Source: an uncultured Candidatus Peribacteria bacterium (GTDB lineage Bacteria; Patescibacteriota; Gracilibacteria; Peribacterales; Peribacteraceae). Taken from it: a DNA stretch of 64,000 nt. The notes under the pieces are model-generated. The model was not told the DNA's origin and did no database searches. It saw only the letters and a program-made list of their open reading frames with translations. Made by a program: the position numbers and the translations under genes. How positions within the stretch are numbered: the stretch's first letter is position 1; each line of letters opens with the position of its first letter. Below are positions 1 through 24,045 of the stretch, piece after piece. The DNA is taken from NCBI GenBank assembly GCA_964458645.1, contig CAYWJU010000002.1, positions 67,033-131,032 of the forward strand. Direction: 5' to 3'.

Positions 1-1680
1 CTTGGCGATCTTGTATTTTGCCCACTCGTCGTCGGTGAACAGGCGCACCAAGTCGGTAATGGCACCGCCTTCGTCCTCGTCGGCCATCAACGTGAGACAG
101 CCGTTGCGGAAGTAGTCCTGGATGCGCGGGCCGAAAATTTCTTCGCCGAACATCTTCACCATCATGCTCATAGCGTCGAGTGCGATAAGGTCTCGCTCTT
201 CGTCGTTCTTGCCCTCCAGCATGTTCAGGCCCATCGGCCGGCCGGTATCTGCCGGGTTGAAGTAAATGACGTCGTCGGCACGTTCGCGTGGCACGTACGG
301 CAGCAAGTCTTCAATCAGTGAACCGTGCGGATCGACCACGCAGATGCCGTGCTTTTTGTGGAAGTCCTGGCGTGCCATTAGCTGGATGACCGATGATTTA
401 CCGGTACCTGTCTGACCGATGACGTAGAAGTGGCGGAAACGGTCTTCGTTCTTCATGAAAATTTTCTTCTTCTCGCCGCGGTAGGTGTTATAGCCGAGGA
501 ATAGGCCTTCCTCGGGAATGTTCTTGGGACACGGCGCGATCTTGAAGTTCTGCCATTTGATCGTGCTGACCTTGTTGTACTTAATGTTCGGGAAATGGAA
601 GATGCTGGCCAATTCGGCGGTGCCGAGCAGCAACTTCTTGCTGAACCAGCGCTGCCACAGCGGGCGGCTGGGGTTGCGGCGAATGAAGCGGTAAATCAGG
701 TTGATGTTCGAGTGGTAGCGCGTGCGCTTGAAGCTGTTGCCGCGGATATCGTTGAACTGCGAAAAGCCACCCACAATCGTGTCCAGCAGCATGTTGCTGC
801 GGTCGGCGGTTTCGGCCGAAGCAACGATGCGGATGACCGCCGTGAAGCCCGGTGAGTTGGCTTTTTCGTCCATGCCTTTGCTGAGCTCCTCCACCATGCT
901 GGTGATGCGCTCGCCGCTGGACGTTTCCTTGAACTGGTCTTTGCCGTCCGACGAGAACATGTCGACCAGCGAGCTGATCCACGACATGGGGTTTTTCCAC
1001 GAGAAGCCGCCGCCTTTCTTGGGGTTGAGCAGTTTCTGGGCTTCCTTCTGCACCTTATCCTGCCACTTGGGCAGTAGCGGGCGCAGCACCACCTGCACCG
1101 CGGCGCCTTCGTTCTTGCTCAATTTGGAGAACGCGTTGGTAATGGCGTTGAACGGGTCGCTCTTCAAGTGCTGGTAGCTCTTGAACGGATAGACGAAACT
1201 CTTGGATGGCAGCAGGTACGTGGACGACGTCACCGAGTTTTTCGTGAAGATGTTGTAGTCCTCCACTTCGTCGATGACCGCGTCGGGGTAGAACGAGGTG
1301 ATCTGCTTTTCGATGATCGGTGCCACGCGACGCGGCGCAACCACGAAAATAAGGATTTCGCCGGCCAGCGCTGCGTACTCGAACGAGATGAACGGCGAAC
1401 CTTTCCAGTGTCGCTGAATGCTGCTTTCGGCCAAGCTTCCAAACGTCTGGTACAGGTGGTCCATGACGCCCAGTACTTCTTTAAAATCTTTGCCGGTCGA
1501 GAACTGTTCTGATTCCTGCTCCTTGTCTTCTTTGCCCTCTTTTTTCGGCATCAGAATCTGCAAGAAGACGAGCTGCTTTTCGCGTTTGCGGTCCTCCATC
1601 CGGCGCATCATTTTCAGCCCATGACGGATTCCCAGCACAATTGCCGCGATGCTGCCGATAAGGATGAGAAATGTCTGCAC
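1..1680 (-). CDS. VirD4/TraD/TraG-like membrane-anchored P-loop ATPase, paralog A (C-terminus runs off the window)
   Basis: Own translation of the minus strand; the ORF is absent from the ORF track because it is truncated. GTG at 1680 follows an in-frame TAA at 1699-1701. One N-terminal hydrophobic helix (TFLILIGSIAAIVLGI). Walker A GQTGTGKS at 394-417. Blocks VVDPHGSLIED, RPMGLNMLE and IFGPRIQDYFRNGCLTLM are shared with ORF 24046-26670. Confidence 0.8.
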   Translation of the reverse strand, partial: MQTFLILIGSIAAIVLGIRHGLKMMRRMEDRKREKQLVFLQILMPKKEGKEDKEQESEQFSTGKDFKEVLGVMDHLYQTFGSLAESSIQRHWKGSPFISFEYAALAGEILIFVVAPRRVAPIIEKQITSFYPDAVIDEVEDYNIFTKNSVTSSTYLLPSKSFVYPFKSYQHLKSDPFNAITNAFSKLSKNEGAAVQVVLRPLLPKWQDKVQKEAQKLLNPKKGGGFSWKNPMSWISSLVDMFSSDGKDQFKETSSGERITSMVEELSKGMDEKANSPGFTAVIRIVASAETADRSNMLLDTIVGGFSQFNDIRGNSFKRTRYHSNINLIYRFIRRNPSRPLWQRWFSKKLLLGTAELASIFHFPNIKYNKVSTIKWQNFKIAPCPKNIPEEGLFLGYNTYRGEKKKIFMKNEDRFRHFYVIGQTGTGKSSVIQLMARQDFHKKHGICVVDPHGSLIEDLLPYVPRERADDVIYFNPADTGRPMGLNMLEGKNDEERDLIALDAMSMMVKMFGEEIFGPRIQDYFRNGCLTLMADEDEGGAITDLVRLFTDDEWAKYKIAK

Positions 1681-1714
1681 GTTTCTATGGTAACACTTTT
1701 ACGTCGTTCTTTGC

Positions 1715-4700
1715 TTACGGTCGTCCTATCACCCCCCACCACAGCTCTCCCACCGGCGTCTCCGGCATGGGCGGCACCTGCAACTCCGGTCCCAGCACGT
1801 CCGACAACACCGTAATCAGCTGTCCCCAGGTGAGTGCTTTCCCATCGCCCACATTCCCCATGCGCCACACCTCGGCGTCCTGCACGCCGGTCAATTCCTG
1901 CAAGATGCTCGTCTTCAGCTCTGCAAACACGCCTTCCGCCTCCAATCTGGTCATGGCTCCCGTCCGTACCCGCGTGTACAGCACGTACGACGCAAGCAGC
2001 CTGCTCGCATTCGTCACCGACACCGGCGCACTGAAGTCTTTCTGTTCTTCCAGCGTCAAATCCTGCGCAAAGCTCAGCGGTGTCAGGTCGAACTCCCGAA
2101 TCGGACGTTGGAAGCTGTGCAGCAACCGCTGCACGTACGTCGTTCCATCCGCAGTGCCAAACACCCGGTCTGGCGAGAAGATGCGGTTGGCCGTGCCTCC
2201 GCCACTCACATCCACGCCCCCTCCTCCCAAGCGCTGCACCGCATCGGAGTAGCTCTCCAGCGGATGACACGTCATCTTCATGCCCGCATCCACCAGACCG
2301 ATCCAGGTCACCGGCTTGTTCGCACCCACGCCGATCGTTCCTGCCTGCACACCGTACTCACTTGGGCGTCCGGTCATCAGCCACCGTGTGCGTCCTTCGG
2401 CATCGCCCGTTCCCACCGACAGCAACAACTGCAAGCGCTGGAACAAGTTTCCTTCCGCATTCGGCAGAATGTCCGACCGCACCGATGTCGCACGACCAAT
2501 GTCTTGCACCATGCACGGACGACGATCAATCACGCCTGCCGCCGCCAAGTACTCCTGTTCCATGCTCTGATCCCAGCGCACTTCATCCGGCAATGCCGAC
2601 AGCGTCAGCTTGCCTCCCGCAAACGCCGCCTTCACCAGCAAGTCAGCCGCCTCCGACGGCGTCACGCCGCCTCCCAGAGCCACTTCGAACCCGCGTGGCA
2701 GCACGCCTGCTTGCTTCAATGCGGCAAACACACCGCTCGTTCCATCGTCCTCCGTCGCATCCGGCGGCAATGCCGCCGTTCCATCCGTCTTCAGCTTCAA
2801 CACGGCCGCCACCATCGCCATGGCCTCACGCTTCGTCACCGGAGCATCGCCATCGGCAACCAGCACTCCACCCGCATTCCTGCCCACCGGAACACCCTGG
2901 GCGAGCAGCGCGTACGCATTGCTCATCCACGACGTTCCTCCCGCAGTCTCCGGCACCGGCACATCGGCCAGCACCCCCGATGTCCATCCTTGTTCCTTGG
3001 CGGCCGACCGCAATCCTTCCCGCAGCGCATCGCCGCTCTTCGACAAGCTCAGACACTGCGTTCCGGCCAGCAGTTCAATGAACTCCTTGCGGCTCACCAA
3101 TGGCTCAGCCAATGCGCCGTCCTTCACCAACTGTTGTCCGTACAAGTTCTGCAAACTCCAGAGCAACGCCTGGGCAACGCTCTTGCCATCCGTCTCCACC
3201 GTTCCAATGCTCAGACACGGTTTGTAGCCAAGCAGTTTCTGGCTCTTCCAGCCCAACCCCACCGTCACCGTTTCTCCTGCCACAACCTCCACCGATTGCC
3301 CTTCTGCAGTCGCTACATATCCTTGCAGCACACCAGACGAATCCACCGCCTGAACAACGTATGTTCCGGCCGGAAGGCTCATCTCGAATGCTCCATTCAC
3401 GTCCGCCACCACCGCCTGCGTCACCGCAGCACCTTCCACGTCCGTTCCCGTCGCCTCCACCCGCACGCCGCCGAACGCCGTACGCTCACCCTTTTCCTTC
3501 TTGCCGTTGCCGTTCACGTCCACGAACAGTTGCCCCGCAAGCGTGCCAGACGGCACCCCGGCCTCACCGCCTCCCGACTCTTGCCCGGACAACCAGTAGC
3601 CGCCACCGCCACCGCCCTCACCGCCGCTTGTCGTTCCTCCGCCACCCGTACTGCCACCCGTCGTTCCTCCGCCACCGCCACCTACCAAACAATCGCTGCC
3701 GATGGTCAGCGTCTGTTCAGCCGACTCACTGCTCAGCCTCAGCCCCGTATCCACCGTCTTCACTCCCCAGTAGTACGTTGCTCCGCACGCCAACCGATTC
3801 ACCAACCGCTGCCGGCTCTGTCCATTCGGCATCATGCGATCCGCATAGTTCGGACTGGCCACCTTGCCCGAAATCACATCGTGCCCATTCGACACCGTTC
3901 CCACCCGCACCTGGTACTGCAGCTGCCGTGTCGGTGTAATCGCATCCGAACCGGAGCCCCACAACATGAGTACATCCACCTCGTTGTAGTAGTAGACAGT
4001 GATTTTTACGTTATCGATCGATGGAGTTGAGTTTCCAACACCGCAAGGAAACTGCGTTGCGGAAAGAGCAGCACCGAAATTGGTCGCATTAATATCACTG
4101 GTCGTCCACGTTTCGCCCCACAGATCGGTAGAACCGCCGTAATCGATAAACGTGCCGCTTGGCCAAAGTGAGCCCAGGCTTTTATCTGTGCTGCCGATTA
4201 CGCCGCGCTTCACGATACGTACGCCGTTGTCCCACATGCCGCAACCGCCATAGTTCTTGTTCCACGAGGCCACGATGCCGACAATCGTTGAGCCGGAAGC
4301 AATGTTAAAACCGAAGTCCGTCGCCTGCAGCCAATGCGTGGTGTGGTTGGTCATGTCCATCAGGCCGCCGCTGGCGCTGACGCTATTGAGCGTGAAGATG
4401 TTTTCCGGATGCAGCCAGGGCATAGTTCCCACACCTGCAATGTCAGTGGCCATGAGCGGCATTCTTGGCGTGGAGCCGGTAGAGCGACTTGCGCTGATGG
4501 TTGAAAGGAGTGTTGTGGGCGCAGTAGGGCTGTCGTTTGGTGTGGAGAACGCGATCGAATTCACATAGTGGCGATTCGGTCCGCCGCTACCGCCGCAGTT
4601 CGTGTCATCATTGCCGGCGATGTAATCCAAGTCGGAATCGGCATCGATATCCGCGAGTGCGACTGCAATTGTGCAATCGCTTTCTTCGGTTGGAGCTCCG

Positions 4701-5986
4701 ATTTGACTGAATGTGCCGGATCCGTTGTTCACCCAAACCTCATTTCCAGCATTGATGCTAGTAATATCTCCTCCTCCCAGCAGAACGTCTACGTCGCCGT
4801 CGTTATCAAGATCTGCCAGGCCTACTGAGCGAGCTTCGGCAACAGTGCCGAAGGTCTGACCAAATGCAAAAGCATTTCCTGTGCCGTCATTAAGATAGGT
4901 CGACACCTGTCCGCCGATGTGCAGGGAGGCGATGATATCGATATCTCCATCACCATCCAGGTCTGCCGTATTCAGTGAATGATTGTATGCACCAGCCAAC
5001 GCAGTCAATTGTGAAAAAGCCCCTGTGCCGCTATTGAGGTGTACCAAAACGCTGCTGTTAGAATTCAGCGTGGCGACGTCCGTGAATCCGTCACTGTTGA
5101 AGTCCGCTGCAGTAATGAGTGAGCAGGCCGGTAATTGCGATGCCACCTGCATGAATGCTCCGGCGCCGTCATTGCGGAACGCCGATAGGCCATATCCGCT
5201 GACCGGACAGCCAATCACATCCAAGTCGCCGTCGTTGTCCATATCGGCGAGTGCAATATTCATAAATGTAACTACGCCACCAGTATAAAAATCGGACGCC
5301 GTGAAGTTTCCAGAGCCGTCGTTCAGGTACTTCGTCAAAGTGTTGACTGTAAACGGTGTTCGCAGGCCAATCAGGTCTATATCTCCGTCTCCGTCAATAT
5401 CTCCAGCTCGCATTGCCTTCGCAGTATGTGAAAGTCCGAAGTCTGGACCTGGCGTGAAGACGGCGGAACCATTGTTGGAGTACAGATTGTTTTTTTGAAT
5501 ATCGGTGCTGTCGCTGTTTGCGGCCACGTAGTCCAAATCGCCATCGCCATCGACATCGAAGACGGGTAGAGCGATAGTTTTTTTGGATTCAGCTGTAAAG
5601 CTCAGTAGTGAAAAACTCACGGGAAACGCGGCGTAGACAATCGCTGCGAACTGCGCAGTCAGAATGCATACGGCCAAACCGAATACGGCGACTTGTAGAC
5701 TTTCGTTCCAATGTGGCAGGCGCAAACGGTGCAATTCGACATGGGACAGCGATACAGAATGCACTCGCCATTGATTCGCAACTGTGTGCCATAGCTCGAA
5801 GAAGCACACCAGCGAAAGGAGGAGGCCGAGCGATACCAATGCGACTGCCAGTGCGCCAGACGTGTCTGCAACCGGACTGTCTGTGCCGTAGTTCATTGCA
5901 AACCGTTGAGCCAGCAGCCATAGGGCTAGCCCTGTACTAAGCAGGTGTATGCAGCCGAGAATTGCGGTCGACCGTGAAACGCGCAT
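1715..5986 (-). CDS. Giant envelope protein: N-terminal TM segments, FG-GAP/VCBS beta-propeller repeats, Gly-rich linker, carboxypeptidase-regulatory-like domain, SLH-like repeats, unknown C-terminal domain
   Basis: Repeated DxDGDGDxD plus NDGxGxF motifs (DVDGDGDLDYV, DIDGDGDIDLI, DMDNDGDLDV, DLDGDGDIDI, DLDNDGDVDV, DIDADSDLDYI). GGGGGGTTGGSTGGGG linker. FVDVNGNGKKE...AGTYVV beta-sandwich. VSRKEFIELLAG, VTKREAMAMVAAVL and VTPSEAADLLVKAAF repeats. ATG 5986 was chosen because TGcTACAAT (5996-6004) lies 9 nt upstream; the ORF-track GTG at 6013 is upstream of that -10 box. Confidence 0.85.
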   Translation of the reverse strand: MRVSRSTAILGCIHLLSTGLALWLLAQRFAMNYGTDSPVADTSGALAVALVSLGLLLSLVCFFELWHTVANQWRVHSVSLSHVELHRLRLPHWNESLQVAVFGLAVCILTAQFAAIVYAAFPVSFSLLSFTAESKKTIALPVFDVDGDGDLDYVAANSDSTDIQKNNLYSNNGSAVFTPGPDFGLSHTAKAMRAGDIDGDGDIDLIGLRTPFTVNTLTKYLNDGSGNFTASDFYTGGVVTFMNIALADMDNDGDLDVIGCPVSGYGLSAFRNDGAGAFMQVASQLPACSLITAADFNSDGFTDVATLNSNSSVLVHLNSGTGAFSQLTALAGAYNHSLNTADLDGDGDIDIIASLHIGGQVSTYLNDGTGNAFAFGQTFGTVAEARSVGLADLDNDGDVDVLLGGGDITSINAGNEVWVNNGSGTFSQIGAPTEESDCTIAVALADIDADSDLDYIAGNDDTNCGGSGGPNRHYVNSIAFSTPNDSPTAPTTLLSTISASRSTGSTPRMPLMATDIAGVGTMPWLHPENIFTLNSVSASGGLMDMTNHTTHWLQATDFGFNIASGSTIVGIVASWNKNYGGCGMWDNGVRIVKRGVIGSTDKSLGSLWPSGTFIDYGGSTDLWGETWTTSDINATNFGAALSATQFPCGVGNSTPSIDNVKITVYYYNEVDVLMLWGSGSDAITPTRQLQYQVRVGTVSNGHDVISGKVASPNYADRMMPNGQSRQRLVNRLACGATYYWGVKTVDTGLRLSSESAEQTLTIGSDCLVGGGGGGTTGGSTGGGGTTSGGEGGGGGGYWLSGQESGGGEAGVPSGTLAGQLFVDVNGNGKKEKGERTAFGGVRVEATGTDVEGAAVTQAVVADVNGAFEMSLPAGTYVVQAVDSSGVLQGYVATAEGQSVEVVAGETVTVGLGWKSQKLLGYKPCLSIGTVETDGKSVAQALLWSLQNLYGQQLVKDGALAEPLVSRKEFIELLAGTQCLSLSKSGDALREGLRSAAKEQGWTSGVLADVPVPETAGGTSWMSNAYALLAQGVPVGRNAGGVLVADGDAPVTKREAMAMVAAVLKLKTDGTAALPPDATEDDGTSGVFAALKQAGVLPRGFEVALGGGVTPSEAADLLVKAAFAGGKLTLSALPDEVRWDQSMEQEYLAAAGVIDRRPCMVQDIGRATSVRSDILPNAEGNLFQRLQLLLSVGTGDAEGRTRWLMTGRPSEYGVQAGTIGVGANKPVTWIGLVDAGMKMTCHPLESYSDAVQRLGGGGVDVSGGGTANRIFSPDRVFGTADGTTYVQRLLHSFQRPIREFDLTPLSFAQDLTLEEQKDFSAPVSVTNASRLLASYVLYTRVRTGAMTRLEAEGVFAELKTSILQELTGVQDAEVWRMGNVGDGKALTWGQLITVLSDVLGPELQVPPMPETPVGELWWGVIGRP

Positions 5987-5995
5987 AATCCTCTT

Positions 5996-6004
5996 ATTGT
6001 AGCA
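5996..6004 (-). promoter_or_regulatory. Extended -10 (TGcTACAAT) 9 nt upstream of ATG 5986
   Basis: Sequence match on the minus strand. Same geometry as many other genes in the window. Confidence 0.5.
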
Positions 6005-6050
6005 GAAAAACACCCTTTTTGAAAGAGCGTCATGGCTCCGTCTCTGGCGA

Positions 6051-6428
6051 TTACGCGGCCTTACTCTTCACCAGGCGCTCCACCATTTCCATAAGCGATT
6101 TGATCGTCATGTCTTTCTTCACAAAGTAATCATCTACCTTCAGTGCTGCACCGCGGTCACGGTTTGCTTGGTCGGCGAAATTGGTCAGGATGATAATCGG
6201 AAACGTGCGCATGTCGGGCGCAAGCTTCTCCAGCACGCCGAAACCATCGAGCACCGGCATGTTGATGTCCAGCAGCATCAGATCAGGCTTTTTGGCTTGA
6301 ATAAGAGCCAAAGCCTCTTGTCCGTTGGTGGCCGTACGCACCGAATAGACGTCCTTATTGAACTTGCGCATATACAAGTCCCGGAGGACCGTATCGTCTT
6401 CGGCGATGAGTACGTCGTACATGACCAT
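6051..6428 (-). CDS. Single-domain response regulator (CheY-like receiver)
   Basis: VLIAEDD...LMLLDINMPVLDG...IIILTNFAD...KVDDYFVKK receiver motifs. The start was moved to ATG 6428 (MVMYDVLIAEDD) because the longer ORF overlaps tsf. Confidence 0.85.
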   Translation of the reverse strand: MVMYDVLIAEDDTVLRDLYMRKFNKDVYSVRTATNGQEALALIQAKKPDLMLLDINMPVLDGFGVLEKLAPDMRTFPIIILTNFADQANRDRGAALKVDDYFVKKDMTIKSLMEMVERLVKSKAA

Positions 6429-6577: not shown

Positions 6578-7348
6578 TTAGACCGCGACGCGTACGTAGG
6601 CAGTCACATTGGCGGCACCGAGCATTTTGCCGACGGTCATGGTCTGGTCCTTCACGAACGTCTGAGTGATGAGTGCGTTTTCCTCGCGGAATTTCTTTTC
6701 CTTGCCGATCATGATTTTTTCCATGATTTCGGCCGGCTTCTTCTCTTTCGCCAGCTGATCCTTCCAAATGTCGCGCTCCTTGGCGACGGATTCGGACGAC
6801 ACTTCCTCGGGCTTCACGTACGTCGGATTCATGGCGGCGGCATGCATGGCCACGTCGGTTGCCTGTGCAGACGTTCCGCCATCCAGACCGACGACCACGC
6901 CGATCTTGCGATTGCTGTGAACGTAGCTGCCGATCACACCGGCTTCCACGACCTTGGTCTCGCCAACGGACACGTTCTCGCCGAGCTCCAGCACGGCGGC
7001 CGGAACTTTGTCCTTGGCGTAGGTGTCTAGGCCAGATTGTCCTTTGTCATGCAGCGTCTGGGCCAGCGTCTGACCGAGCGTGGTGAACGGTTCGGAGCGT
7101 GCAACGAAGTCGGTTTCGCATTTTACGAACACGAGTGCAGCTTTCTTTGCCGAAGTGGCAATGAAGATGCCGCCTTCGTGCTGCTCGCGATCAGCCTTCT
7201 TCACGGCCTGGGCCTGGCCCTTCTTACGCAAGATTTCAATCGCCTTGTCGGTGTCGCCGTTGGCTTCGTCGAGGGCGTTCTTGGCAGCCAGGATTCCGGC
7301 GCCGGTGCGGGCGCGCAGTTCAGCGACTTGTGCGGGTGATACAGCCAT
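6578..7348 (-). CDS. tsf: Translation elongation factor Ts
   Basis: N-terminus VSPAQVAELRARTGAGILAAKNALDEANGDTDKAIEILRKKG (UBA-like EF-Ts signature). Located immediately downstream of rpsB. Confidence 0.95.
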   Translation of the reverse strand: MAVSPAQVAELRARTGAGILAAKNALDEANGDTDKAIEILRKKGQAQAVKKADREQHEGGIFIATSAKKAALVFVKCETDFVARSEPFTTLGQTLAQTLHDKGQSGLDTYAKDKVPAAVLELGENVSVGETKVVEAGVIGSYVHSNRKIGVVVGLDGGTSAQATDVAMHAAAMNPTYVKPEEVSSESVAKERDIWKDQLAKEKKPAEIMEKIMIGKEKKFREENALITQTFVKDQTMTVGKMLGAANVTAYVRVAV

Positions 7349-7389: not shown

Positions 7390-8118
7390 TTACTCAGCGT
7401 CTTTGTCGTCTTTGGCCGAAGCGCGGTCGGAGGCCAGTTCGTCCTGCACGGTCTTCAAGATGAGCGTAATGGACTTCACTGCGTCGTCGTTCGACGGAAT
7501 GAACACCTTGAAGGCGTCCGGGTCGGCGTTGCTGTCGCAAATGCCGTACAGTGGCAGGCCGATCTTCTTTGCTTCCAGAACAGCGACGCGGTCGCGGACG
7601 GCGTCGACAACGAACATGGCGTCGGGCAGACCCGTCATGCCGGCCACACCGGACAGTGCAGAATCCAACTTAGCCAGTTCCTTGCGGAGCTGCGTCTGTT
7701 CCTTCTTGGTGTACTTCTCCACTTCGCCGGTCTTGAACGAGTTCTGAAGATCCAGGTAGTAGCGGATGCGGTGCTTCAGGGTTGCCCAGTTGGTGAGCAG
7801 TCCCGGGACCCACTTCTTGGTAACGACCGGCTGGCCGGTAGCGCGGCTGAGCTGTTCGATCGGCTGGAGAGATTGGAGCTTGGTGGAAACGAACAAGATC
7901 GTCTTGCCGCTCTTCTGAAGGGCTTTGAGTTCCTCGCACGTCTTCACCAAGGCCTTGCGCGTTTTGGCGAGGTCGAAGATGTGAATGCCACGGCGGACGC
8001 CGAACAAGTACTGCTTCATCTTGGGGTTCCACTTTTCTTTGCGGTGGCCGAAGTGGCAAGCGGCCTGGACCAAATCTTTTTCCGACGGAATCGGCATTGT
8101 AGAAGGGGGAATGAGCAT
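7390..8118 (-). CDS. rpsB: 30S ribosomal protein S2
   Basis: DLVQAACHFGHRKEKWNPKMKQYLFGVRRGIHIFDL and classic rpsB-tsf synteny. The start could instead be the second Met at 8097. Confidence 0.95.
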   Translation of the reverse strand: MLIPPSTMPIPSEKDLVQAACHFGHRKEKWNPKMKQYLFGVRRGIHIFDLAKTRKALVKTCEELKALQKSGKTILFVSTKLQSLQPIEQLSRATGQPVVTKKWVPGLLTNWATLKHRIRYYLDLQNSFKTGEVEKYTKKEQTQLRKELAKLDSALSGVAGMTGLPDAMFVVDAVRDRVAVLEAKKIGLPLYGICDSNADPDAFKVFIPSNDDAVKSITLILKTVQDELASDRASAKDDKDAE

Positions 8119-8710: not shown

Positions 8711-10138
8711 TTAGTTTTTGAGTTTTCCGATCAGCTCATCGATCGTCACACGCTCTTGTTTCAACGTGTCACGGTCGCGAATCGTCACGGTGTCCTTGGC
8801 GCCTTGTTCGGTGTCTTCGCCCAGCGTTCCGAAGTCGACGGTAATGCACTTGGGCGTGCCGGTTTCGTCTTGGCGGCGGTAGCGCTTGCCGATGCTTCCG
8901 GTGAGATCGAAATCAATCGTCAGGTCGGTTTCTTGAACAAGTTTTGTGTACACATCTTGAGCCTTGGCAACGAGGTGTTCCTTCTTGCTAAGCGGCAGAA
9001 TAGCTACGTCCACTGGGGCCATTTTCGGAGCGAATTTTAGCACCGTGCGCACGTCGTCTTCGGCTACTTTTTCCTCGTTGTACGCTTCCAGCAAGAGTGC
9101 CAACACGGCGCGCGTCAGACCGAACGTCGGCTCGACTACATACGGCAAAAACTTTTTCTTTGGGTCGTCCGGATCGGTGTACTTCAGGTCCTGCCCCGAG
9201 AACTTCTCGTGCTGTGTGAGGTCGAAATCCGAGCGGTTGGCCAAACCGAATAATTCCCCCCAACCCCACGGGTACATGTACTCGATGTCCAGTGTGCGGC
9301 TGGAGTAGTGCGACAACTCTTCCTTGGTGTGCTCGCGGATGCGCAGACGCTCGGCGGAAAGCCCGATGTCCAAGCACCACTGCCACATTGCATCTTTCCA
9401 CTTTTCGAAGTGGACGCCTTCCGTTCCCGGTTCGATGAAGTACTCGATTTCCATCTGCTGGAATTCACGGGTGCGGAATGTGAAGTTGCCGGGAGTGATC
9501 TCGTTGCGGAATACCGTGCCGACCTGCGCGATTCCAAACGGCAGGCGCTTGCGCATGGTTTGCGACACGCTCTTAAAGTCCACGAACATGCCTTGGGCCG
9601 TTTCCGGACGCAGGTAAATGTCGCTGCCTTCGCCTTCCACTACGCCTTGTTCGGTCTTGAACATGAGGCTGAACTTCTTGGCCACGGTCCAATCCACGCT
9701 TTTGCAGTTCGGGCAGGCGATCTTCTCGGCCATGAGCATCGGCTGCACCTGGTCGAGCTTCAGAATGGCTGCGGCCTCCACACCCATTTTTTCTTCAATG
9801 AGTTTGTCGCCGCGGAAGCGCTGCTTGCATTTCTTGCAGTCCACCAGCGGGTCGCCGAAGTTGCTGACGTGGCCGCTGGCTTCCCAGACTTTGGGGTTCA
9901 TAAGAATGCCGCTCTCCAAACCCACCATGTCTTGGCGGCTGCGGACGAAGCGGTTCCACCACAATTTCTGCACGCGGCTTTTCAGTTCCAATCCCAGCGG
10001 GCCGTAGTCCCAGGTGTTCGCCAGTCCGCCGTAAATCTCGGAGCCCGGAAACACGAATCCGCGGCGTTTGCAGAGCGAGACGATTTGGTCGAGGGTGGTG
10101 GCGGGCACGGGTGAGAGATGGGAAGCGGCCCAGAGCAT
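8711..10138 (-). CDS. glyQS: Glycine--tRNA ligase (homodimeric class II type)
   Basis: LDQIVSLCKRRGFVFPGSEIYGGLANTWDYGPLGLELK... and the class II core. The true start may be GTG at 10108 (VPATTLDQIV), because ATG 10138 lies inside a TGcTATGCT -10-like box. Confidence 0.95.
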   Translation of the reverse strand: MLWAASHLSPVPATTLDQIVSLCKRRGFVFPGSEIYGGLANTWDYGPLGLELKSRVQKLWWNRFVRSRQDMVGLESGILMNPKVWEASGHVSNFGDPLVDCKKCKQRFRGDKLIEEKMGVEAAAILKLDQVQPMLMAEKIACPNCKSVDWTVAKKFSLMFKTEQGVVEGEGSDIYLRPETAQGMFVDFKSVSQTMRKRLPFGIAQVGTVFRNEITPGNFTFRTREFQQMEIEYFIEPGTEGVHFEKWKDAMWQWCLDIGLSAERLRIREHTKEELSHYSSRTLDIEYMYPWGWGELFGLANRSDFDLTQHEKFSGQDLKYTDPDDPKKKFLPYVVEPTFGLTRAVLALLLEAYNEEKVAEDDVRTVLKFAPKMAPVDVAILPLSKKEHLVAKAQDVYTKLVQETDLTIDFDLTGSIGKRYRRQDETGTPKCITVDFGTLGEDTEQGAKDTVTIRDRDTLKQERVTIDELIGKLKN

Positions 10139-10158
10139 AGCAGGAAACGGGCGCTTTT

Positions 10159-10197
10159 GCGGAGTCCAAGGAGTCTTGGCGTCACGGAGTCGCGTCC
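10159..10197. repeat. GGANTCC-unit array (locus 2)
   Basis: GAGTC at 10162, 10171 and 10187, between the divergent glyQS and ORF 10254. Confidence 0.6.
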
Positions 10198-10253
10198 TGC
10201 TTTATCAGAAGCCAAAAATCCGGTATACTGTATTCAATACCAATATCCAGTCC

Positions 10254-11552
10254 ATGCCTCCGGAGAGCCGTGAACCATTGAACGAGTCGCAGGATGCTCA
10301 CCTGAGAGTGAATCTGCCCGAACGCCCGAACCCGGCGCTGCCGTTTGCCGATGCCCAAAATAAAGAGCTGGATGCCGCCCGCGCGAAGTACTGGAAGGCA
10401 GCCGAGGATTGTTCGGTATTTCCGCTTACAGACGAAGCCAAAATCGCACTGCGACTCATCGGCGAATTAGGCCCCAAGCATTTCAAGGCTATTAACGACA
10501 AGTACGACAAAATCCGCACTCTGGTTGCCAGTTGCCAGCGGCGCATTGAGACCTCGCATGCGGAACTGGAAAAAACGAGAAAAGAACTGAAGGAGCTGAA
10601 CAAGCCTTTTGGACTGGTGCAAGAGTTGGTGGGCATGCGGAAGGTCATCTCAAAAGATGGAGTTGCCGAAGCGAATCTGATTCTCGATCTGGAGGATAGG
10701 ATAAAGGCACTCACGGCACTTGCTGATCCGTCCGTCCCGCCCGAATACGCGATGTATCAGCTGGACCAAATGACCGCTCCCGGTGCGGGAGTGCGCTATG
10801 ACTTTTCAGCTTCCGATGCTGCAAACAAGGACGTGAACAGGAAGGCCGACAAATGGGAGCAGAGCCTCGATGCGGTCGACCAGGCGGTCGGCATGGTCAG
10901 CAAGGCCGTTCCATGGGGCCCGGAGGTGTACATCGCCATGAAGTCGCTGGGTGGGACGATCGGCGGGGGTAACAGTGAAGAGATCATTCAGAAGAACATC
11001 CGGCAGTATCTGGAAATCCGCCTTGGCAAAGGCGCACGGGTAGCGTTGGCCGGAGCGGAGCACCACGATGAAATTCTGCTGGTGCTGAAGGAATCCGACA
11101 AACTGGCCGAAGTCATGCCCGAGTTGTTGCCACTGCTCGAAGAGGCCGCACCGGTTGCCGCTGATCAGGCAGAAAACAATGCGTCGCTGCTCACCAGGAA
11201 AATCCTCAAGGGATTCATCAAGCGAAAGTTCCCCAAGCTCGCTGCCGCGAAAGGGATTACCGAAGAACTCGTAGATGGCGCATCCGCCACCGATGCCGTT
11301 GCCGCCAATCGCAGGAACCTGCTCCGAGCTACCAAAAAGAGTGCTCCGGTCGTGAAAACAACCACCAACGTTGTTGCGGACGAAGCTGCGGGCAAGCTTC
11401 AGACCACTGAGTATAAAATCGACCGTTTCCAGAAAGCGGTGAAGGAAAAGATGGCCGAGCACGCAATTGATCCTGCGTTGCAGGCCGAAATTGAGCAGAC
11501 GTTGGCCGAAGTTCTCCGGGAGCGACTTGAGGCAGGGCAAAAGGCGAAATAG
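10254..11552 (+). CDS. Hypothetical protein, predicted coiled-coil rich
   Basis: Long ORF with host-like codon usage. The start was trimmed to ATG 10254 because the ORF-track start overlaps glyQS. No known motif. Confidence 0.6.
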   Translation: MPPESREPLNESQDAHLRVNLPERPNPALPFADAQNKELDAARAKYWKAAEDCSVFPLTDEAKIALRLIGELGPKHFKAINDKYDKIRTLVASCQRRIETSHAELEKTRKELKELNKPFGLVQELVGMRKVISKDGVAEANLILDLEDRIKALTALADPSVPPEYAMYQLDQMTAPGAGVRYDFSASDAANKDVNRKADKWEQSLDAVDQAVGMVSKAVPWGPEVYIAMKSLGGTIGGGNSEEIIQKNIRQYLEIRLGKGARVALAGAEHHDEILLVLKESDKLAEVMPELLPLLEEAAPVAADQAENNASLLTRKILKGFIKRKFPKLAAAKGITEELVDGASATDAVAANRRNLLRATKKSAPVVKTTTNVVADEAAGKLQTTEYKIDRFQKAVKEKMAEHAIDPALQAEIEQTLAEVLRERLEAGQKAK

Positions 11553-11618
11553 CCGACTTCCACGCTGGCAAGCCACCTACCGAGCATCGGTGTATTTCTT
11601 TATTTTAAGCCAAAAATC

Positions 11619-11627
11619 TGCTATAAT
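11619..11627 (+). promoter_or_regulatory. Extended -10 TGcTATAAT upstream of the PrsW-like gene
   Basis: Sequence match 20 nt upstream of ATG 11648. Confidence 0.5.
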
Positions 11628-11647
11628 CCTAAGATTTTATCAACTGA

Positions 11648-13222
11648 ATGACTATCCCGATCATCATCGGCGTTGTGATCGTAGCGTTCATCCTCATCCG
11701 AGTGTGGACGGGAGCCATGAACATTACGTCGGTCGAAAGCCAGTCCTTGGCCGACGTGGAAAGCAAGCATCCGTACCTGCCAAGTCTGAAAGTCATGATT
11801 GCGGCAGTCGTGGTTACGGCAGTCGTTATTTTCTTGTCGGTGCAGTACGGCAAGGGCACGACGCTGTTGACCAGCGTGGTGGATCAGTCCACTGCCTATC
11901 GCTCGTTGTTCGTGTTCTTGGCGATTCTGGCATTCGGTATTTTCGACCAGGCTCGTTGGCACGGTTCGAAGGATCGGTATCGATACTTTTTTGCGTTCGT
12001 GCTGGGTACCGTCGTTACATGGATTCTTATTGCGTTCAAACGTGCGATTTTTGAAACAGGCATTCAGCAGGATCCGTTCCTTGTGGCACTGGGTGTCGTG
12101 TGTGTTGTCATCGCTTGGAGGTTTTTGTTCGGTCCTTGGAGTGCGAGCATTAAGGCCACGGTGCTCGGCACATTCGTCTTCTGGGTGTCGTATGCCATTT
12201 TGCGACATTCCACTAGTGAAATGCTGCTCTCCACGGCGTTGGCATCACTTGTTGCCATTGTGCCGGTGATCGTCTGGTGCAAGTTGTTTTTGTCGTATCA
12301 TCGGCAGCGTCTGAGCATCGTATTCCTGGCGTTCTTTGCCGGCATGCTCTCCACCGCGCCGATCTTGTTTTACCACGAGCTGATGATGCATTCGATTCAG
12401 CTCAACTTCTTTTTGTTCAAAGTCGTCCCGCTCAGCTTCGGCAGCAGTGCGGGAGCGTTCGTGAAAACCACGTTGCTCGAGGGCGTGGGGCTGAAGACCA
12501 CGCTGGCAATCGTCCTCACCACGCTGGTGACATATCTGATTGTCGGAATCATTGAAGAAGTGAGCAAATACTGGGTGTTGCGTCACAGTAGTAAGTCTTT
12601 CTTTCGGTCGATTGACGACGTCATGCAGCTGGCCATTATCGTGGCGATTGGATTCGCCTTTGCCGAGAACCTTGTGAATCCCACGTATTTCGTCGGTTTC
12701 GTTCGTAACTACCTCATCCGTCCGGAGACGCCCATGTGGGGTGCGTTCCTCGGCAATGTCATCGGCCGTTCGGTGCTCACCAATATGGTGCACATCCTTT
12801 CTACCGGCGTGCTGGGCTACTTCTTTGGCTTGGCGTTCTTTGCTTCGCCGTTGCTGCGCGATCAATTTGCTCAGGGCAATGTTCATCCGGTTATCAACTG
12901 GATCCGTCGCCTGCTCGATCTGCATACAGAGGCCGTCTATGGTCGCTTCCAAATGGCACTCGGTTTATCTGCGTCCATCATTTTGCATGGCCTGTTTGAC
13001 TTCACGGTGTCGTTGCCCGATGTCCTGCCCGGAAACCCGGCCAGCATCGGTGCGCTGGTCGGTGCCGAGGCGAATTCATTCTTAAGTGGCATCGCCATCA
13101 CCCTGGTGCCTGCCGTGTTGTATGTGGTCGGAGGATTGTGGTTGTTGGTCTACCTATTCGCACGCAAAGAGGACATGAAAGAGTACGGCTCCGTGGTGGA
13201 GACGCAGACGTTCATCAGCTGA
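11648..13222 (+). CDS. PrsW-family intramembrane protease (multi-pass membrane protein)
   Basis: Motifs IIEEVSKYWVL, GFAFAENL, HILSTGVLGYFFG and ILHGLFDF, plus many hydrophobic helices. Confidence 0.8.
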   Translation: MTIPIIIGVVIVAFILIRVWTGAMNITSVESQSLADVESKHPYLPSLKVMIAAVVVTAVVIFLSVQYGKGTTLLTSVVDQSTAYRSLFVFLAILAFGIFDQARWHGSKDRYRYFFAFVLGTVVTWILIAFKRAIFETGIQQDPFLVALGVVCVVIAWRFLFGPWSASIKATVLGTFVFWVSYAILRHSTSEMLLSTALASLVAIVPVIVWCKLFLSYHRQRLSIVFLAFFAGMLSTAPILFYHELMMHSIQLNFFLFKVVPLSFGSSAGAFVKTTLLEGVGLKTTLAIVLTTLVTYLIVGIIEEVSKYWVLRHSSKSFFRSIDDVMQLAIIVAIGFAFAENLVNPTYFVGFVRNYLIRPETPMWGAFLGNVIGRSVLTNMVHILSTGVLGYFFGLAFFASPLLRDQFAQGNVHPVINWIRRLLDLHTEAVYGRFQMALGLSASIILHGLFDFTVSLPDVLPGNPASIGALVGAEANSFLSGIAITLVPAVLYVVGGLWLLVYLFARKEDMKEYGSVVETQTFIS

Positions 13223-13341
13223 CCATAAGAATGGATTAACACGTGGCGTACTCCACGGTTGTTTTGCCACATCGCGGCGCGTACCATACGCGGTACCTCC
13301 CGTTTCGCGTTCGTACGAATCGGGTTTCCCACCCTGTCGTT

Positions 13342-14934
13342 ATGTCCATGCGCAAGTCTCTCGCCGCCCTGTTCATCGCCGCTCAACTGCTTTCGCCTGC
13401 CGCTACATTCGCGCGTCCGGTGAGCGATATCGTCAATGTTTCTGCCGAAACGGTTTCCCGTATCGACTTCCTGACATGGTCTGCCGAAGTCACGGGTTTG
13501 CGCAAAAGCGACGACTGCACCTTGTCTTACACTCGCTATCCCAAGGGCCGCAAAGGAACATTGTGCTTGGCAAAGAATTCAGGAGCGCTGGAGGCATTCG
13601 GCCCTGTGACCATGAGCTACAACCTGAATAAGCCCATTTCACGCGGCGAAGCTGTAGATGTGCTCACTCAGATTATCGGCAAGCGCAAAGAGGCCGATGT
13701 CTCCGCATTCAAAGATGTAAAGACCACCCGCCAGAAGCAGGCCGTCATGAACGCCATCGCACTGAAGTGGATGAACCCGGTCCGTGCCGATGCATTCGGC
13801 TGGAACGATCTTCTCACCGGCACCGAAGCCTCGTCGTTGTTGCAGGCTGCCGGCGATGCGGTGCCGCTCCAATTCACGGTAAAAGTGAACCAGGGTACGA
13901 CGACTCCGCTACCGAAGGAGGAATTGATGAATTCCATCTGGCAAATTATTCAGCGCGATTACTACAAGAAGGATGAGGTCAATGGTGACGAAGCCGCCTA
14001 CAAAGCAATTGAAGGAATGGTCAGCGGTCTGAATGACCCGTATTCCACATTCTTCCGCCCCGTTGGTGCGACCGAGTTCAGCAACGGCATTAAGGGTGAA
14101 GTGAGCGGTATTGGCGCTCACGTCGAGGACAAGGGTGGCATGGTCATGATCGTGGCTCCGTTGCCGGGTTCACCGGCTGAGCGTGCAGGCTTGCAGACCG
14201 GCGACCAAATTCTGGAGGCCGACGGACATGTGTTGACCGGTATTGGCTTGGACAAAGCCGTAGGGTACATCCGCGGTGAAAAAGGTACGTTCGTAGAGCT
14301 GAAATTGCTCCGCTCCGGCATTCAAATCAGCGTTCGCGTCGAGCGTGCCATCATCTCCATCCCAGAGGTGCAGGTGAAGTGGCAGGGCGACATTGCCATC
14401 GTCGAACTGCTGCAGTTCGGCGAGACCACCGAGCGCCAAATCCGCACTGTCTTCACCGACATTGCGAAGAAGAAGCCCAAGGGCATTATTTTGGATTTGA
14501 GAAACAACCCCGGAGGCTTGCTGAGTGCGGCCGATACTGTGGTCAGCAACTTCGTTCCCCAGGGCAGCATCGTTGCCCAAGTGAAGTCGCCGAGCGAAAC
14601 TCGGAATGAAATCACCCTGGATGCCCCCACCGTTTCCGATACGACGAAAGTGGTGGTGCTGGTGAACAAGGGGTCTGCCAGCGCTTCCGAAATTGTTGCC
14701 GGCGCTCTGCAGGACTACAAGCGTGCGACCATCGTTGGCGAGACGACGTTCGGCAAAGGAAGCGTGCAGGAAGTCATCTCCTTCAGCGGAGGCGAAGCCC
14801 TGAAGCTTACCGTTGCAAACTACTTCACTCCGCTTGGTAACAAGGTCGATGGTATTGGAATCAAGCCCGATATCACCGTGACTGCCGACGATCGCGATGC
14901 ACAGTTGCAGCGCGCCTTGGATATCCTTCGCTAA
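13342..14934 (+). CDS. ctp: Carboxy-terminal processing protease (S41) with PDZ domain and N-terminal SLH-like repeats
   Basis: PAERAGLQTGDQILEADG (PDZ), LDLRNNPGG, GSASASEIVAGALQD, TFGKGSVQ. Signal peptide from MSMRKSLAALFIAAQLL. Confidence 0.9.
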   Translation: MSMRKSLAALFIAAQLLSPAATFARPVSDIVNVSAETVSRIDFLTWSAEVTGLRKSDDCTLSYTRYPKGRKGTLCLAKNSGALEAFGPVTMSYNLNKPISRGEAVDVLTQIIGKRKEADVSAFKDVKTTRQKQAVMNAIALKWMNPVRADAFGWNDLLTGTEASSLLQAAGDAVPLQFTVKVNQGTTTPLPKEELMNSIWQIIQRDYYKKDEVNGDEAAYKAIEGMVSGLNDPYSTFFRPVGATEFSNGIKGEVSGIGAHVEDKGGMVMIVAPLPGSPAERAGLQTGDQILEADGHVLTGIGLDKAVGYIRGEKGTFVELKLLRSGIQISVRVERAIISIPEVQVKWQGDIAIVELLQFGETTERQIRTVFTDIAKKKPKGIILDLRNNPGGLLSAADTVVSNFVPQGSIVAQVKSPSETRNEITLDAPTVSDTTKVVVLVNKGSASASEIVAGALQDYKRATIVGETTFGKGSVQEVISFSGGEALKLTVANYFTPLGNKVDGIGIKPDITVTADDRDAQLQRALDILR

Positions 14935-22474: not shown

Positions 22475-22672
22475 AGCAAAAACGTCGCGCGGCGGTCCGG
22501 CTGGCCACGCAGATCGCGATCTGTCGTGGCTGGCCTGCGCTCCACGCGCCTCACAGCCCTAAATTTCTTTGAAATTTTTCACGGTCTGTTTCGGCGGGAG
22601 CGCGACGGCACCAGCCCGATGCGCGACACTCCATCCCGTGTCCAACAAGCAGACAAGTACGAAAGGCATGTT

Positions 22673-22792
22673 GCGAGTTCTCTCACTCAATCCACCAAAG
22701 GGGTGGCGTGCGCTGCGCGCGGGGGTCTGCTGGAGGGCGCTCAGCGCACACGCGCTTTTTGGTTCCTTTTTGTCGCTCGGACAAAAAGGAAC
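22673..22792 (+). repeat. Structured repeat element, copy 1 (candidate ncRNA or MITE-like)
   Basis: Near-identical to the reverse complement of 50425-50557. Hairpins CCACC-aaagg-GGTGG, GTGCGCTG...CAGCGCAC and a perfect 13-bp stem GTTCCTTTTTGTC-gctcg-GACAAAAAGGAAC. Confidence 0.7.
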
Positions 22793-22820
22793 AGTCAATG
22801 TAAAAAGCGTGATTTCTTCA

Positions 22821-22829
22821 TGCTATACT
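22821..22829 (+). promoter_or_regulatory. Extended -10 TGcTATACT upstream of the RlpA-like gene
   Basis: Sequence match 14 nt upstream of ATG 22844. Confidence 0.45.
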
Positions 22830-22843
22830 TCGCGTCCAACGCT

Positions 22844-23914
22844 ATGCATCGCCTTCGAATCGCCGTAGTCATTGGCTGTGTCCTTAGTTCTTTTGCCGTG
22901 GCAGCAGCCGCGCCTGCAGCCATAACGCGTCGCGATGGTTTTCTGCTGGTATGGTCCAGTATTTTGCGTCCTGTGGATGCTGTGCGCGAGACGCCCTATC
23001 TGGATGTCCCCAAAGGTTCGGTCGGATTCGACGTCATCACCTATGCCAAGGCACGTGGGCTGACCATCGACGGCGAACACTTCTCGCCCGATGATCCACT
23101 GGTCGCACGCGACGCGGTGATTTGGCTGCTTCGCACGCGCAATCTGGAGCCTATCGACGCCGAGGGAAAGAAGGAGTTCCTGAAAGTCGTCGAGCCGGAA
23201 GATGCCGGTCTGCTGGCCGACAAGTACGGAATCAACACCTACGAGCCCGACCACATGCTCACGCAGGAAGAGCTACTTGGATTGATGAGAAAACTTGATG
23301 GCGCGCTGAATGCCGAGGTGCACGAGGCCAGCCTGTATTCAGAAAAATTCCATGGCAAAGGGACTGCGTTCGGCGAGACGTTTGATATGCATGCACTCAC
23401 TGCAGCACATCGCTCATTCCCGGCAAATACGCTGGTGAAGGTGACGAATGTCGAAAACAAGAAGAGCGTCGTCGTTCGTATCAATGATCGCGGACCGTTC
23501 GTACAGGGCCGAGATATGGACTTGAGTTTAGGTGCCTTCTTGCAGATTGCGGAGCGATCGAAGGGACGCATCGATACCACATTTGAGCGACTCGGCGATT
23601 CCACCATGGTGAACCGATGCGGCGATTCTTCTATGCAGAGACGGATCAGTCGTGATGTCATTTTGGCTCCCGGCATCCCGCATCGTTTTGCATTGGGCGA
23701 GGAATTGGCGTTATCGGCCAACAAGTTCTTCGTGGTGCGCGGCATTCGCTACCCCGACGGTACGCTACAGGATATGCAAGATTGGGTGAGTCCCGACGAG
23801 CATTTTTCCTTTTCCCCAAGCGCCGTAGGAGGCTATCAGTTCATCCTAGGAACCACTGCAGGGCGGCTTCGGACGTTGACCATGGAAGTTGCCGATTGCA
23901 CCACCGGAAGCTGA
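22844..23914 (+). CDS. rlpA: RlpA-like lytic transglycosylase (double-psi beta-barrel) with N-terminal SLH-like repeats
   Basis: [61 protein letters not shown]. Signal peptide [22 protein letters not shown]. An alternative ATG lies at 22820. Confidence 0.85.
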
Positions 23915-24045
23915 TCTCGTCATCCTTGACTTTCATGAGTTCTCTGAACTCCTTGGTATGGCTTTCTTGTGCCAAAAACGCTGTATTTGTTCGGGTTTTT
24001 ATGATAGAATACTAGGATTTATGTCTATAAGATAAATCACACAGA

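Follow-up and report, generated by a model that had tools for sequence, protein, structure and literature searches.

A putative wall-anchored giant protein family with constant and variable halves beside an orphan coupling-protein-like ATPase in Candidatus Peribacteria

We analysed a 64,000-nucleotide stretch of DNA from an uncultured Candidatus Peribacteria bacterium (assembly GCA_964458645.1, contig CAYWJU010000002.1, positions 67,033 to 131,032; hereafter the window), in which the gene for a giant envelope protein of 1423 amino acids (aa) directly precedes the gene for an ATPase related to VirD4 and TrwB, the coupling proteins (T4CPs) of type IV secretion systems (T4SSs). We hold it moderately probable that the giant protein belongs to a family of exported proteins, held in place by domains of the surface-layer homology (SLH) type, that combine a constant anchor with a variable head, and that the ATPase beside it is an orphan T4CP homologue and not a dedicated partner of the giant protein. 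A preliminary description of this DNA, drawn up from its letters without database searches, had proposed a minimal adhesin-plus-translocase module. Its components, namely an adhesin-like envelope protein and a VirD4/TrwB-type ATPase with no classical T4SS nearby, stood up to analysis, but a dedicated machine of the two genes is not supported, as far as gene order tells, by a comparison of 87 related loci.

In the arrangement that we favour, the giant protein would be exported via its N-terminal hydrophobic segments, and its constant module (aa 676–1423) would fasten it to the cell wall, most probably by binding a wall polymer in the manner of SLH domains. The variable module, composed of an FG-GAP β-propeller and a jelly-roll resembling carbohydrate-binding modules (CBMs), would act as a ligand-binding head, possibly for glycans or surfaces. 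Two paralogues with different heads would share one anchor that is held identical by gene conversion. The ATPase would be a membrane-tethered, presumably hexameric protein, made of DUF8128 and a VirD4/TrwB-type nucleoside triphosphatase (NTPase) domain, that resides in a conserved chromosomal slot and shares this slot with the giant protein without being its dedicated partner.

Two giant genes and their shared repeat

A profile search returned the giant protein of the window (P0278) together with a paralogue (P0281), whose contig has the same length (181,361 bp). Over the ~745 aa that run from aa 676 to the end of the protein, the two show 100% identity; before that point their identity is 35–45%. 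Their genes, the two giant genes of this genome, flank the ATPase gene, one on each side, and share an exact direct repeat of 2232 bp whose boundary falls exactly on a domain border. One copy of the repeat occupies positions 1730–3961 of the window and the other lies past its left edge, the two copies bracketing the ATPase gene. The second giant gene across the ATPase gene and the shared exact repeat are new observations; the class of orphan T4CPs has been described already.

Long exact repeats are hard to assemble and the source contig is metagenome-assembled, which would favour reading the duplicated C-terminal half as an artefact of assembly or binning in a genome with a single giant gene. 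Independent per-run assemblies speak against this. They contain a separate contig of 2232 bp that corresponds exactly to window positions 1730–3961, has approximately twice the depth of its flanks (19 versus 9 and 18.5 versus 8) and has two alternative continuations at each end, and a 4.7-kb contig runs from the end of the repeat through the ATPase gene and the second head to the start of the second repeat. The same layout is also found in two metagenome-assembled genomes (MAGs) from other studies (L010 and L006), each with its own repeat sequence. The artefact was rejected on this evidence of depth and linkage, and we regard it as very improbable. Two ‘joints’, which rest on side matches of 20–21 nt, were rejected as evidence of deletion variants, and no evidence of switching or of silent cassettes was found for the two giant copies.

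In the nearest relative with long flanks (L010; ATPase 99% identical, DNA ~90%), the order is glyS–rpsB–tsf–receiver–giant1–ATPase–giant2, followed by a convergent gene for an SLH-fused sortase, and the repeat measures 2248 bp at 99.8% identity. The more distant L006 (ATPase 87% identical) has the same bracketed layout with a repeat of 2097 bp at 98.4% identity, and its constant half is only ~60% identical to that of the window. A constant half that is alike within a genome and divergent between genomes is the pattern of gene conversion, or concerted evolution, and points to conversion as the process that maintains the identity of the constant modules. The giant genes provide a clear, read-supported case of such evolution, with identical anchor halves and diverged heads.

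The two halves also differ in rate. Relative to L010, the ratio of nonsynonymous to synonymous substitution rates (dN/dS) is 0.09–0.16 for the giant head and 0.08 for the constant half, compared with 0.015 for the ATPase and the receiver and 0.008–0.054 for rpsB, glyS and tsf; the dN of the head is 3–6 times that of the constant half. The giant gene is the fastest-evolving gene of the locus and is under purifying selection overall. In the same comparison, the dS of the constant half is 0.20, against 0.42–0.51 in most neighbouring genes (0.23 in rpsB), and that of the jelly-roll is 1.13, values that suggest recombination or exchange of segments between populations.

Architecture and family of the giant protein

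The giant open reading frame (ORF; positions 1715–5986, minus strand, copy 1 of the two in the genome) begins with ATG; other possible starts are a GTG at 6013 and Met31, the latter used in the public gene call (P0278, 1393 aa). Its N-terminal region (aa 1–135; 5582–5986, minus strand, as are all further domains) contains 3–4 hydrophobic segments and a family-conserved loop (aa 64–98), and the last segment is closed by a conserved V-Y-A motif that resembles the cleavage site of a signal peptidase and after which, at about aa 121, the mature protein may start. The variable half continues with an FG-GAP β-propeller of the calcium-binding type (aa 136–490; 4517–5581), with seven DxDxDGDxD motifs at aa 144–454 (approximately window 4625–5557). 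The Pfam profile FG-GAP_3 (PF13517) matches the protein in five stretches (E = 9.4e-35; 119.5 bits versus a cut-off of 26.9), and this score above the gathering threshold together with the seven calcium-type loops places it among FG-GAP/VCBS proteins. The propeller is followed by a ~160-aa β-jelly-roll domain (aa 495–672; 3971–4504), for which no Pfam model was found and whose AlphaFold2 model has a predicted local distance difference test score (pLDDT) of 88.5. No other part of the giant protein is as widely shared as this jelly-roll: the domain occurs in many other architectures, including stand-alone proteins of ~190 aa that cluster look-ups label only ‘hypothetical protein’, and most of the top 150 representative matches cover the jelly-roll stretch only, at E ≤ 1e-29. 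A sequence search of the PDB with the giant protein gave no match.

The constant half starts at aa 676, within an immunoglobulin-like domain (aa 671–770; 3677–3976) that is weakly matched by Ig_Rha78A_N (E = 7e-4). After a Gly-rich linker (aa 768–797; 3596–3685) comes a β-sandwich (aa 805–925; 3212–3574) that resembles SdrD_B, with an E-value of 6e-6 and a score of 26.9 bits that is just under the cut-off of 29.7; in an exhaustive search of representative sequences, this stretch matches repeatedly in other proteins. Three SLH-like repeats are predicted from the fold of aa 926–1140 (2567–3211). The model of this region (pLDDT 83.6) matches the SLH domains of SpaA and Sap in Foldseek with a probability of 1.0, template-modelling scores of 0.55–0.70 and E-values of 2e-3 to 7e-2, and it matches phage SLH proteins too. 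SLH repeats carry a TRAE motif, and at its position the three repeats have helix-initial motifs of a T/S-R-x-E-like kind, VSRKEF, VTKREA and VTPSEA (SRKE, TKRE and TPSE). The protein ends in an α/β domain of ~283 aa (aa 1141–1423; 1718–2566) for which PDB, BFVD and Pfam yielded no recognisable relative. Its C-terminus reads ...PMPETPVGELWWGVIGRP, and the family consensus ends in GE.WW.R, a conserved GE.WW tail without a transmembrane (TM) segment. The idea that the giant protein is a sortase substrate was ruled out, as it has neither an LPXTG-type motif nor a hydrophobic C-terminal segment.

This architecture bears out most of what the preliminary description had read from the ORF: its length of 1423 aa and hydrophobic N-terminus, the FG-GAP motifs (seven in number), the Gly-rich linker, a real ~160-aa domain that it could not name and that is modelled here as a jelly-roll, and a last ~280 aa that still lack an assignment. 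The sandwich that it had called carboxypeptidase-regulatory-like reads here as a putative SdrD_B-like sandwich; the Pfam profile CarboxypepD_reg gave no match in the giant protein.

A word-indexed search with the C-terminal half returned a single match, and the family was recovered by the exhaustive search of representatives, in which ~45 representatives at 50% clustering match the whole C-terminal 934 aa; all of them are 1,100–1,600 aa long. The named members come from Peribacteria, to which the family is restricted as far as these matches tell, and a metagenome scan with a narrow alignment of the C-terminal half found 11 loci. Most members have 2–3 hydrophobic segments with a conserved basic loop before the last one, and the family has conserved Cys pairs and calcium-type loops, as would suit a protein outside the cell. 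In L007, the gene of one member (P0122) begins 53 nt past the stop codon of the ATPase gene, and this member carries only a canonical signal peptide (MRLKR, a hydrophobic stretch and AYA). An extended -10 element (TGGTATAAT; L007 2600–2631) and a GGAG right before the ATG are found at this downstream giant gene, so that downstream giant copies are probably transcribed independently. Exact look-ups of the window proteins, P0278 and P0281 found no entry on record. In a Peribacteria genome paper, FG-GAP proteins appear solely within a group of Cys-rich proteins that is distinct from the giant family. The locus defines an unannotated family of envelope proteins of ~1,150–1,600 aa with three domains outside all Pfam models.

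The ATPase and its chromosomal slot

The preliminary description had named synteny of the giant and ATPase genes in related genomes as the observation on which the proposed module would turn, and most of what was found in this regard goes against it. Gene order was compared across 87 related Peribacteria loci (80 genome loci and others that were fetched). The backbone reads glyS–rpsB–tsf–receiver–ATPase, with a gene for a phospholipase D/cardiolipin-synthase-like protein (~400 aa, two HKD-type motifs) lying on either strand between the receiver and ATPase genes in ~35 loci (for example L036, 8709–9941) and the receiver directly abutting the ATPase gene, at a gap of 43–376 nt, in ~20 others. 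In 69 of the 87 loci, the ATPase or giant gene is closely followed by a convergent SLH-sortase gene (for example L002, 2738–3943; L010, 16975–18297). The ATPase is 63–99% identical across all sampled Peribacteria loci, most of which have no giant gene within 10 kb. When the loci are divided into clades by a neighbour-joining tree of the ATPases, a giant gene neighbours the ATPase gene in ~17 of the ~31 loci that form the clade of the window, and in none of the ~55 deeper loci. Its position relative to the ATPase gene also varies, being upstream, downstream, on both sides or in tandem; the order is ATPase–giant–sortase in L094 and L095, and receiver–giant–sortase without the ATPase in L086, L090–L092 and L098. 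In L005, L019, L022 and L030 the ATPase gene follows yceG, outside the receiver-to-sortase slot. The yceG region of the window (28643–29656 onward) has no ATPase gene, which implies that the gene has moved at least once.

The adjacency of the two genes is clade-restricted and position-variable, a pattern in which the giant genes appear as clade-specific insertions into the receiver-to-sortase slot and the ATPase gene appears as part of the backbone. By the same comparison, the receiver is no chance neighbour but a member of this conserved backbone. The case for functional coupling of the giant protein and the ATPase is weakened by this gene order, and a functional link retains a modest probability. 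The SLH-fused sortase gene adjoins the giant gene more constantly than the ATPase gene does. The full backbone from glyS to the sortase (glyS–rpsB–tsf–receiver–ATPase–sortase) is also carried by L078 (JAIPIN010000023.1), a contig filed as part of a Kiritimatiellales MAG and probably mis-binned.

The ATPase gene (positions 1–1680, minus strand, GTG start at 1680) leaves the window at its left edge after 560 of ~827 codons. Its product has one clear TM helix (aa 4–22), followed by a DUF8128 region of ~330 aa and an NTPase domain with Walker A (GQTGTGKSS) and Walker B (DEFQN) motifs; DUF8128 (PF26449) was detected on the orthologue P0002. The fragment in the window scores 21.7 bits with TrwB_AAD_bind (cut-off 20.5) and 28.2 bits with DUF87, and the full-length, 93%-identical orthologue P0001 scores above the gathering thresholds with T4SS-DNA_transf (37.3 bits), TrwB_AAD_bind (32.3) and DUF87 (28.0). 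The protein has the T4CP profile and both Walker motifs of this class, but in place of two TM helices leading directly into the NTPase it has one helix and the intervening DUF8128, and it is not encoded with VirB4, VirB6 or a relaxase. The TraD, CedD and HerA equivalogs of NCBIfam reached at best 27.6 bits against cut-offs of 250–970, measured on a fragment that lacks the last 267 residues, and no match to the FtsK families (FtsK_SpoIIIE, alpha and gamma) was found in the ATPase. A sequence search of the PDB returned only TrwB, with marginal similarity (E = 0.009). Thousands of relatives share the architecture of DUF8128 with TrwB_AAD_bind, T4SS-DNA_transf and DUF87; a full-text literature search for ‘DUF8128’ found no paper.

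The preliminary description had missed a second T4CP-like paralogue of 874 aa (24046–26670, plus strand) that is 39% identical to the first. A gene of the DPBB_1 lytic-transglycosylase type lies directly before this second ATPase gene (22526–26670 for the pair, plus strand), the product of which matches T4SS-DNA_transf, TrwB_AAD_bind and TraG-D_C. The pair of DPBB_1 and second-type ATPase is also present in L005, there with a PG_binding_1 protein ahead of it, and this pairing of a wall-cutting enzyme with a T4CP-like ATPase resembles a remnant secretion module more closely than the giant–ATPase locus does. According to a published survey, there are 5,713 VirD4-like T4CPs in 2,918 Patescibacteria genomes, only 148 of which lie near virB4, and orphan VirD4-like T4CPs occur at about two per patescibacterial genome, for which exaptation was suggested (PMC12102498). 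The two ATPase paralogues of the window agree with this number.

The receiver gene (6051–6428, minus strand) ends 64 nt upstream of the giant ATG and encodes a single-domain CheY-type protein of 125 aa. Its product matches Response_reg (PF00072; E = 1.1e-23) and, as read from the sequence, has the DD pocket, the Asp54-type site (the Asp in LLDINMP), the Thr and the Lys of CheY-like receivers. A hairpin after the receiver gene and a promoter-like site (TTCAAA-16-TACAAT with a TG), which ends 10 nt before the giant ATG at 5986, occupy the gap between the two genes (5996–6031, minus strand); both are consensus matches only. In the 34 nt that separate the giant stop codon from the start of the ATPase gene (1681–1714, minus strand), neither a promoter-like nor a terminator-like site was found. 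Positions 2520–3072 of the giant gene are covered by metatranscriptome contigs, which stem from a ~95%-identical relative and stop short of the junction with the ATPase gene.

With regard to the remaining gene content, Pfam scans of 21 ORFs other than the giant, ATPase and receiver genes, covering part of the small ORFs, detected no VirB4, VirB6, relaxase or prepilin gene, and a rough motif scan of the called window ORFs found no match for a prepilin or a histidine kinase. These results agree with the preliminary description as regards the two intergenic distances, the absence of a promoter-like site in the 34-nt gap, the lack of secretion-channel, relaxase and pilin genes, and the lack of a partner kinase for the receiver. 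On the minus strand, the genes run from right to left as glyS (8711–10138), rpsB (7390–8118), tsf (6578–7348), receiver, giant ORF and ATPase. On the plus strand at 10068–14934, a 494-aa ORF without a Pfam match is followed by genes for a PrsW-type intramembrane protease and a peptidase with PDZ and S41 domains (CtpB-like); the PrsW and S41 pair adjoins glyS in L086 too. Elsewhere the window carries ordinary core genes of a chromosome, among them carB, dnaG, rpoD, leuS, der, a UvrD/AddA-type helicase-nuclease gene and a genuine ftsK (56252–58483). Homologues assign the organism to Candidatus Peribacteria (Peregrinibacteria), and the sequence of the locus is present in sludge and wastewater metagenomes.

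Alternative readings and relation to known systems

Several observations weigh against an SLH-held giant protein beside an ATPase that is not its dedicated partner. The assignment of the SLH-like repeats rests on their predicted fold (Foldseek E ~ 2e-3): the three repeats of the preliminary description persist in that their model matches SLH triads, but the Pfam SLH profile (PF00395) gave no match at E ≤ 0.01 in the whole giant protein or at E ≤ 1 in aa 926–1140. The best structural neighbours of the jelly-roll, of the CBM4, CBM11 and CBM35 types, are weak ones (E ~ 3e-3, template-modelling score ~0.4). Positive or diversifying selection on the head is unsupported, as dN/dS stays below 1 everywhere. 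In the window's clade, a gap of 34 nt free of terminator-like sites separates the giant gene from the ATPase gene, which lies on the same strand, so that co-transcription, and with it some coupling, is possible. Finally, the loop and the hydrophobic segments before V-Y-A are conserved across most family members, which would be odd for a discarded signal peptide and fits a retained polytopic anchor, and an anchor of this kind would place the variable head beside the membrane and not outside the wall.

This last point is the core of the main rival, in which the giant protein is anchored in the membrane by a polytopic N-terminus and its SLH module reaches the wall, making it a membrane-to-wall tether or an envelope sensor. 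In that case the inner zone of the wall would be where the head acts, and the receiver or the ATPase might take signals from the conserved cytoplasmic loop. The 2–3 hydrophobic segments and the basic conserved loop of most members agree with this, as do a last segment far more conserved than ordinary signal peptides and the invariable placement of the giant genes within the receiver-to-sortase slot. At least one member (P0122), however, has only a canonical cleavable signal peptide, the fastest-evolving part of the protein would be its least exposed, and there is no direct evidence of signalling; we consider a tether or sensor possible but doubtful. The proposal of a minimal contact-dependent module, made up of the giant protein and a T4CP-like ATPase that would supply the energy either for moving DNA or protein or for exporting or assembling the giant protein, draws on the shared strand and uninterrupted 34-nt gap, on the frequent placement of giants on both sides of the ATPase gene among the ~17 loci of the window's clade where they adjoin, and on the invariant extreme C-terminal motif and the conserved loop between hydrophobic segments, either of which the ATPase might recognise. 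T4CPs generally recruit their substrates through C-terminal signals, which counts in its favour. Against it stand the ATPase genes that have no giant gene within reach, the giant genes without an adjacent ATPase gene, the variable order of the two, the Sec-type N-terminal export signals of the giants and the absence of VirB4 and VirB6 channel components from the scanned ORFs. In addition, the orphan T4CP of the single genetically tested patescibacterium was, according to the survey, dispensable for epibiotic growth (PMC12102498). On balance we regard a transfer or secretion module as unlikely. Two forms of a working unit, which we judge decidedly improbable even when taken together, would go further: either the ATPase recognises the GE.WW tail or the conserved loop of the giants and, needing no VirB4 channel, powers their export or assembly, or the 2.2-kb repeats act as a recombination switch that excises the ATPase gene and one head, yielding chimeric giants and surface variation.

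Patescibacteria, also known as the candidate phyla radiation (CPR), presumably spend their lives attached to other cells, and few of their surface proteins are understood. Under the reading of an exported, SLH-held giant family, the heads and the SLH-like anchor would offer concrete targets for studies of host attachment. The locus places a widespread orphan T4CP-like ATPase in a conserved slot beside a receiver and an SLH-sortase, and it cautions that adjacency alone is no ground for calling T4CP homologues of the CPR secretion modules.

Among known systems, the ATPase resembles VirD4, TrwB and TraD in its NTPase domain of the FtsK/HerA superfamily, its Walker A motif and its N-terminal membrane anchor. 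It differs from them in having one TM helix instead of two and ~330 aa of DUF8128 between anchor and NTPase, in its marginal similarity to the solved T4CPs, and in being a chromosomal backbone gene with two paralogues per genome and no VirB4, relaxase or channel genes nearby. As a VirD4-like ATPase encoded away from virB4, at approximately two per genome, it conforms to the orphan T4CPs of Patescibacteria surveyed by Quinonero-Coronel et al. 2025 (PMC12102498); in the text searched, the survey is silent on the DUF8128 architecture, on the receiver/SLH-sortase backbone and on the flanking giants, and it mentions neither FG-GAP nor Peregrinibacteria.

The giant protein shares with FG-GAP/VCBS proteins of the integrin-α type the FG-GAP_3 match and the seven calcium-type motifs. 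With generic FG-GAP proteins, such as those of the type IX secretion system in Hymenobacter, it has only the propeller in common, the combination of SLH-type and C-terminal domains being specific to the giant family. The SLH-anchored proteins Sap and EA1 of Bacillus anthracis and SpaA of Paenibacillus alvei are closer in plan, since they too combine an anchor with a functional domain in one surface protein, and the SLH triad of the giant protein has the same predicted fold. Unlike them, the giant protein has no Pfam SLH match, its triad is internal to the C-terminal half with a 280-aa domain after it, its head is an FG-GAP propeller with a jelly-roll, and most members of its family have extra N-terminal hydrophobic segments. 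The sap homologues of Campylobacter fetus and the cell-wall proteins of Clostridioides difficile combine a conserved anchor with a variable exposed region, and recombination keeps the anchor alike. The giant paralogues likewise share a long identical anchor-coding block and differ elsewhere, but there are only two of them, both apparently intact and on one strand, with an unrelated conserved gene between them.

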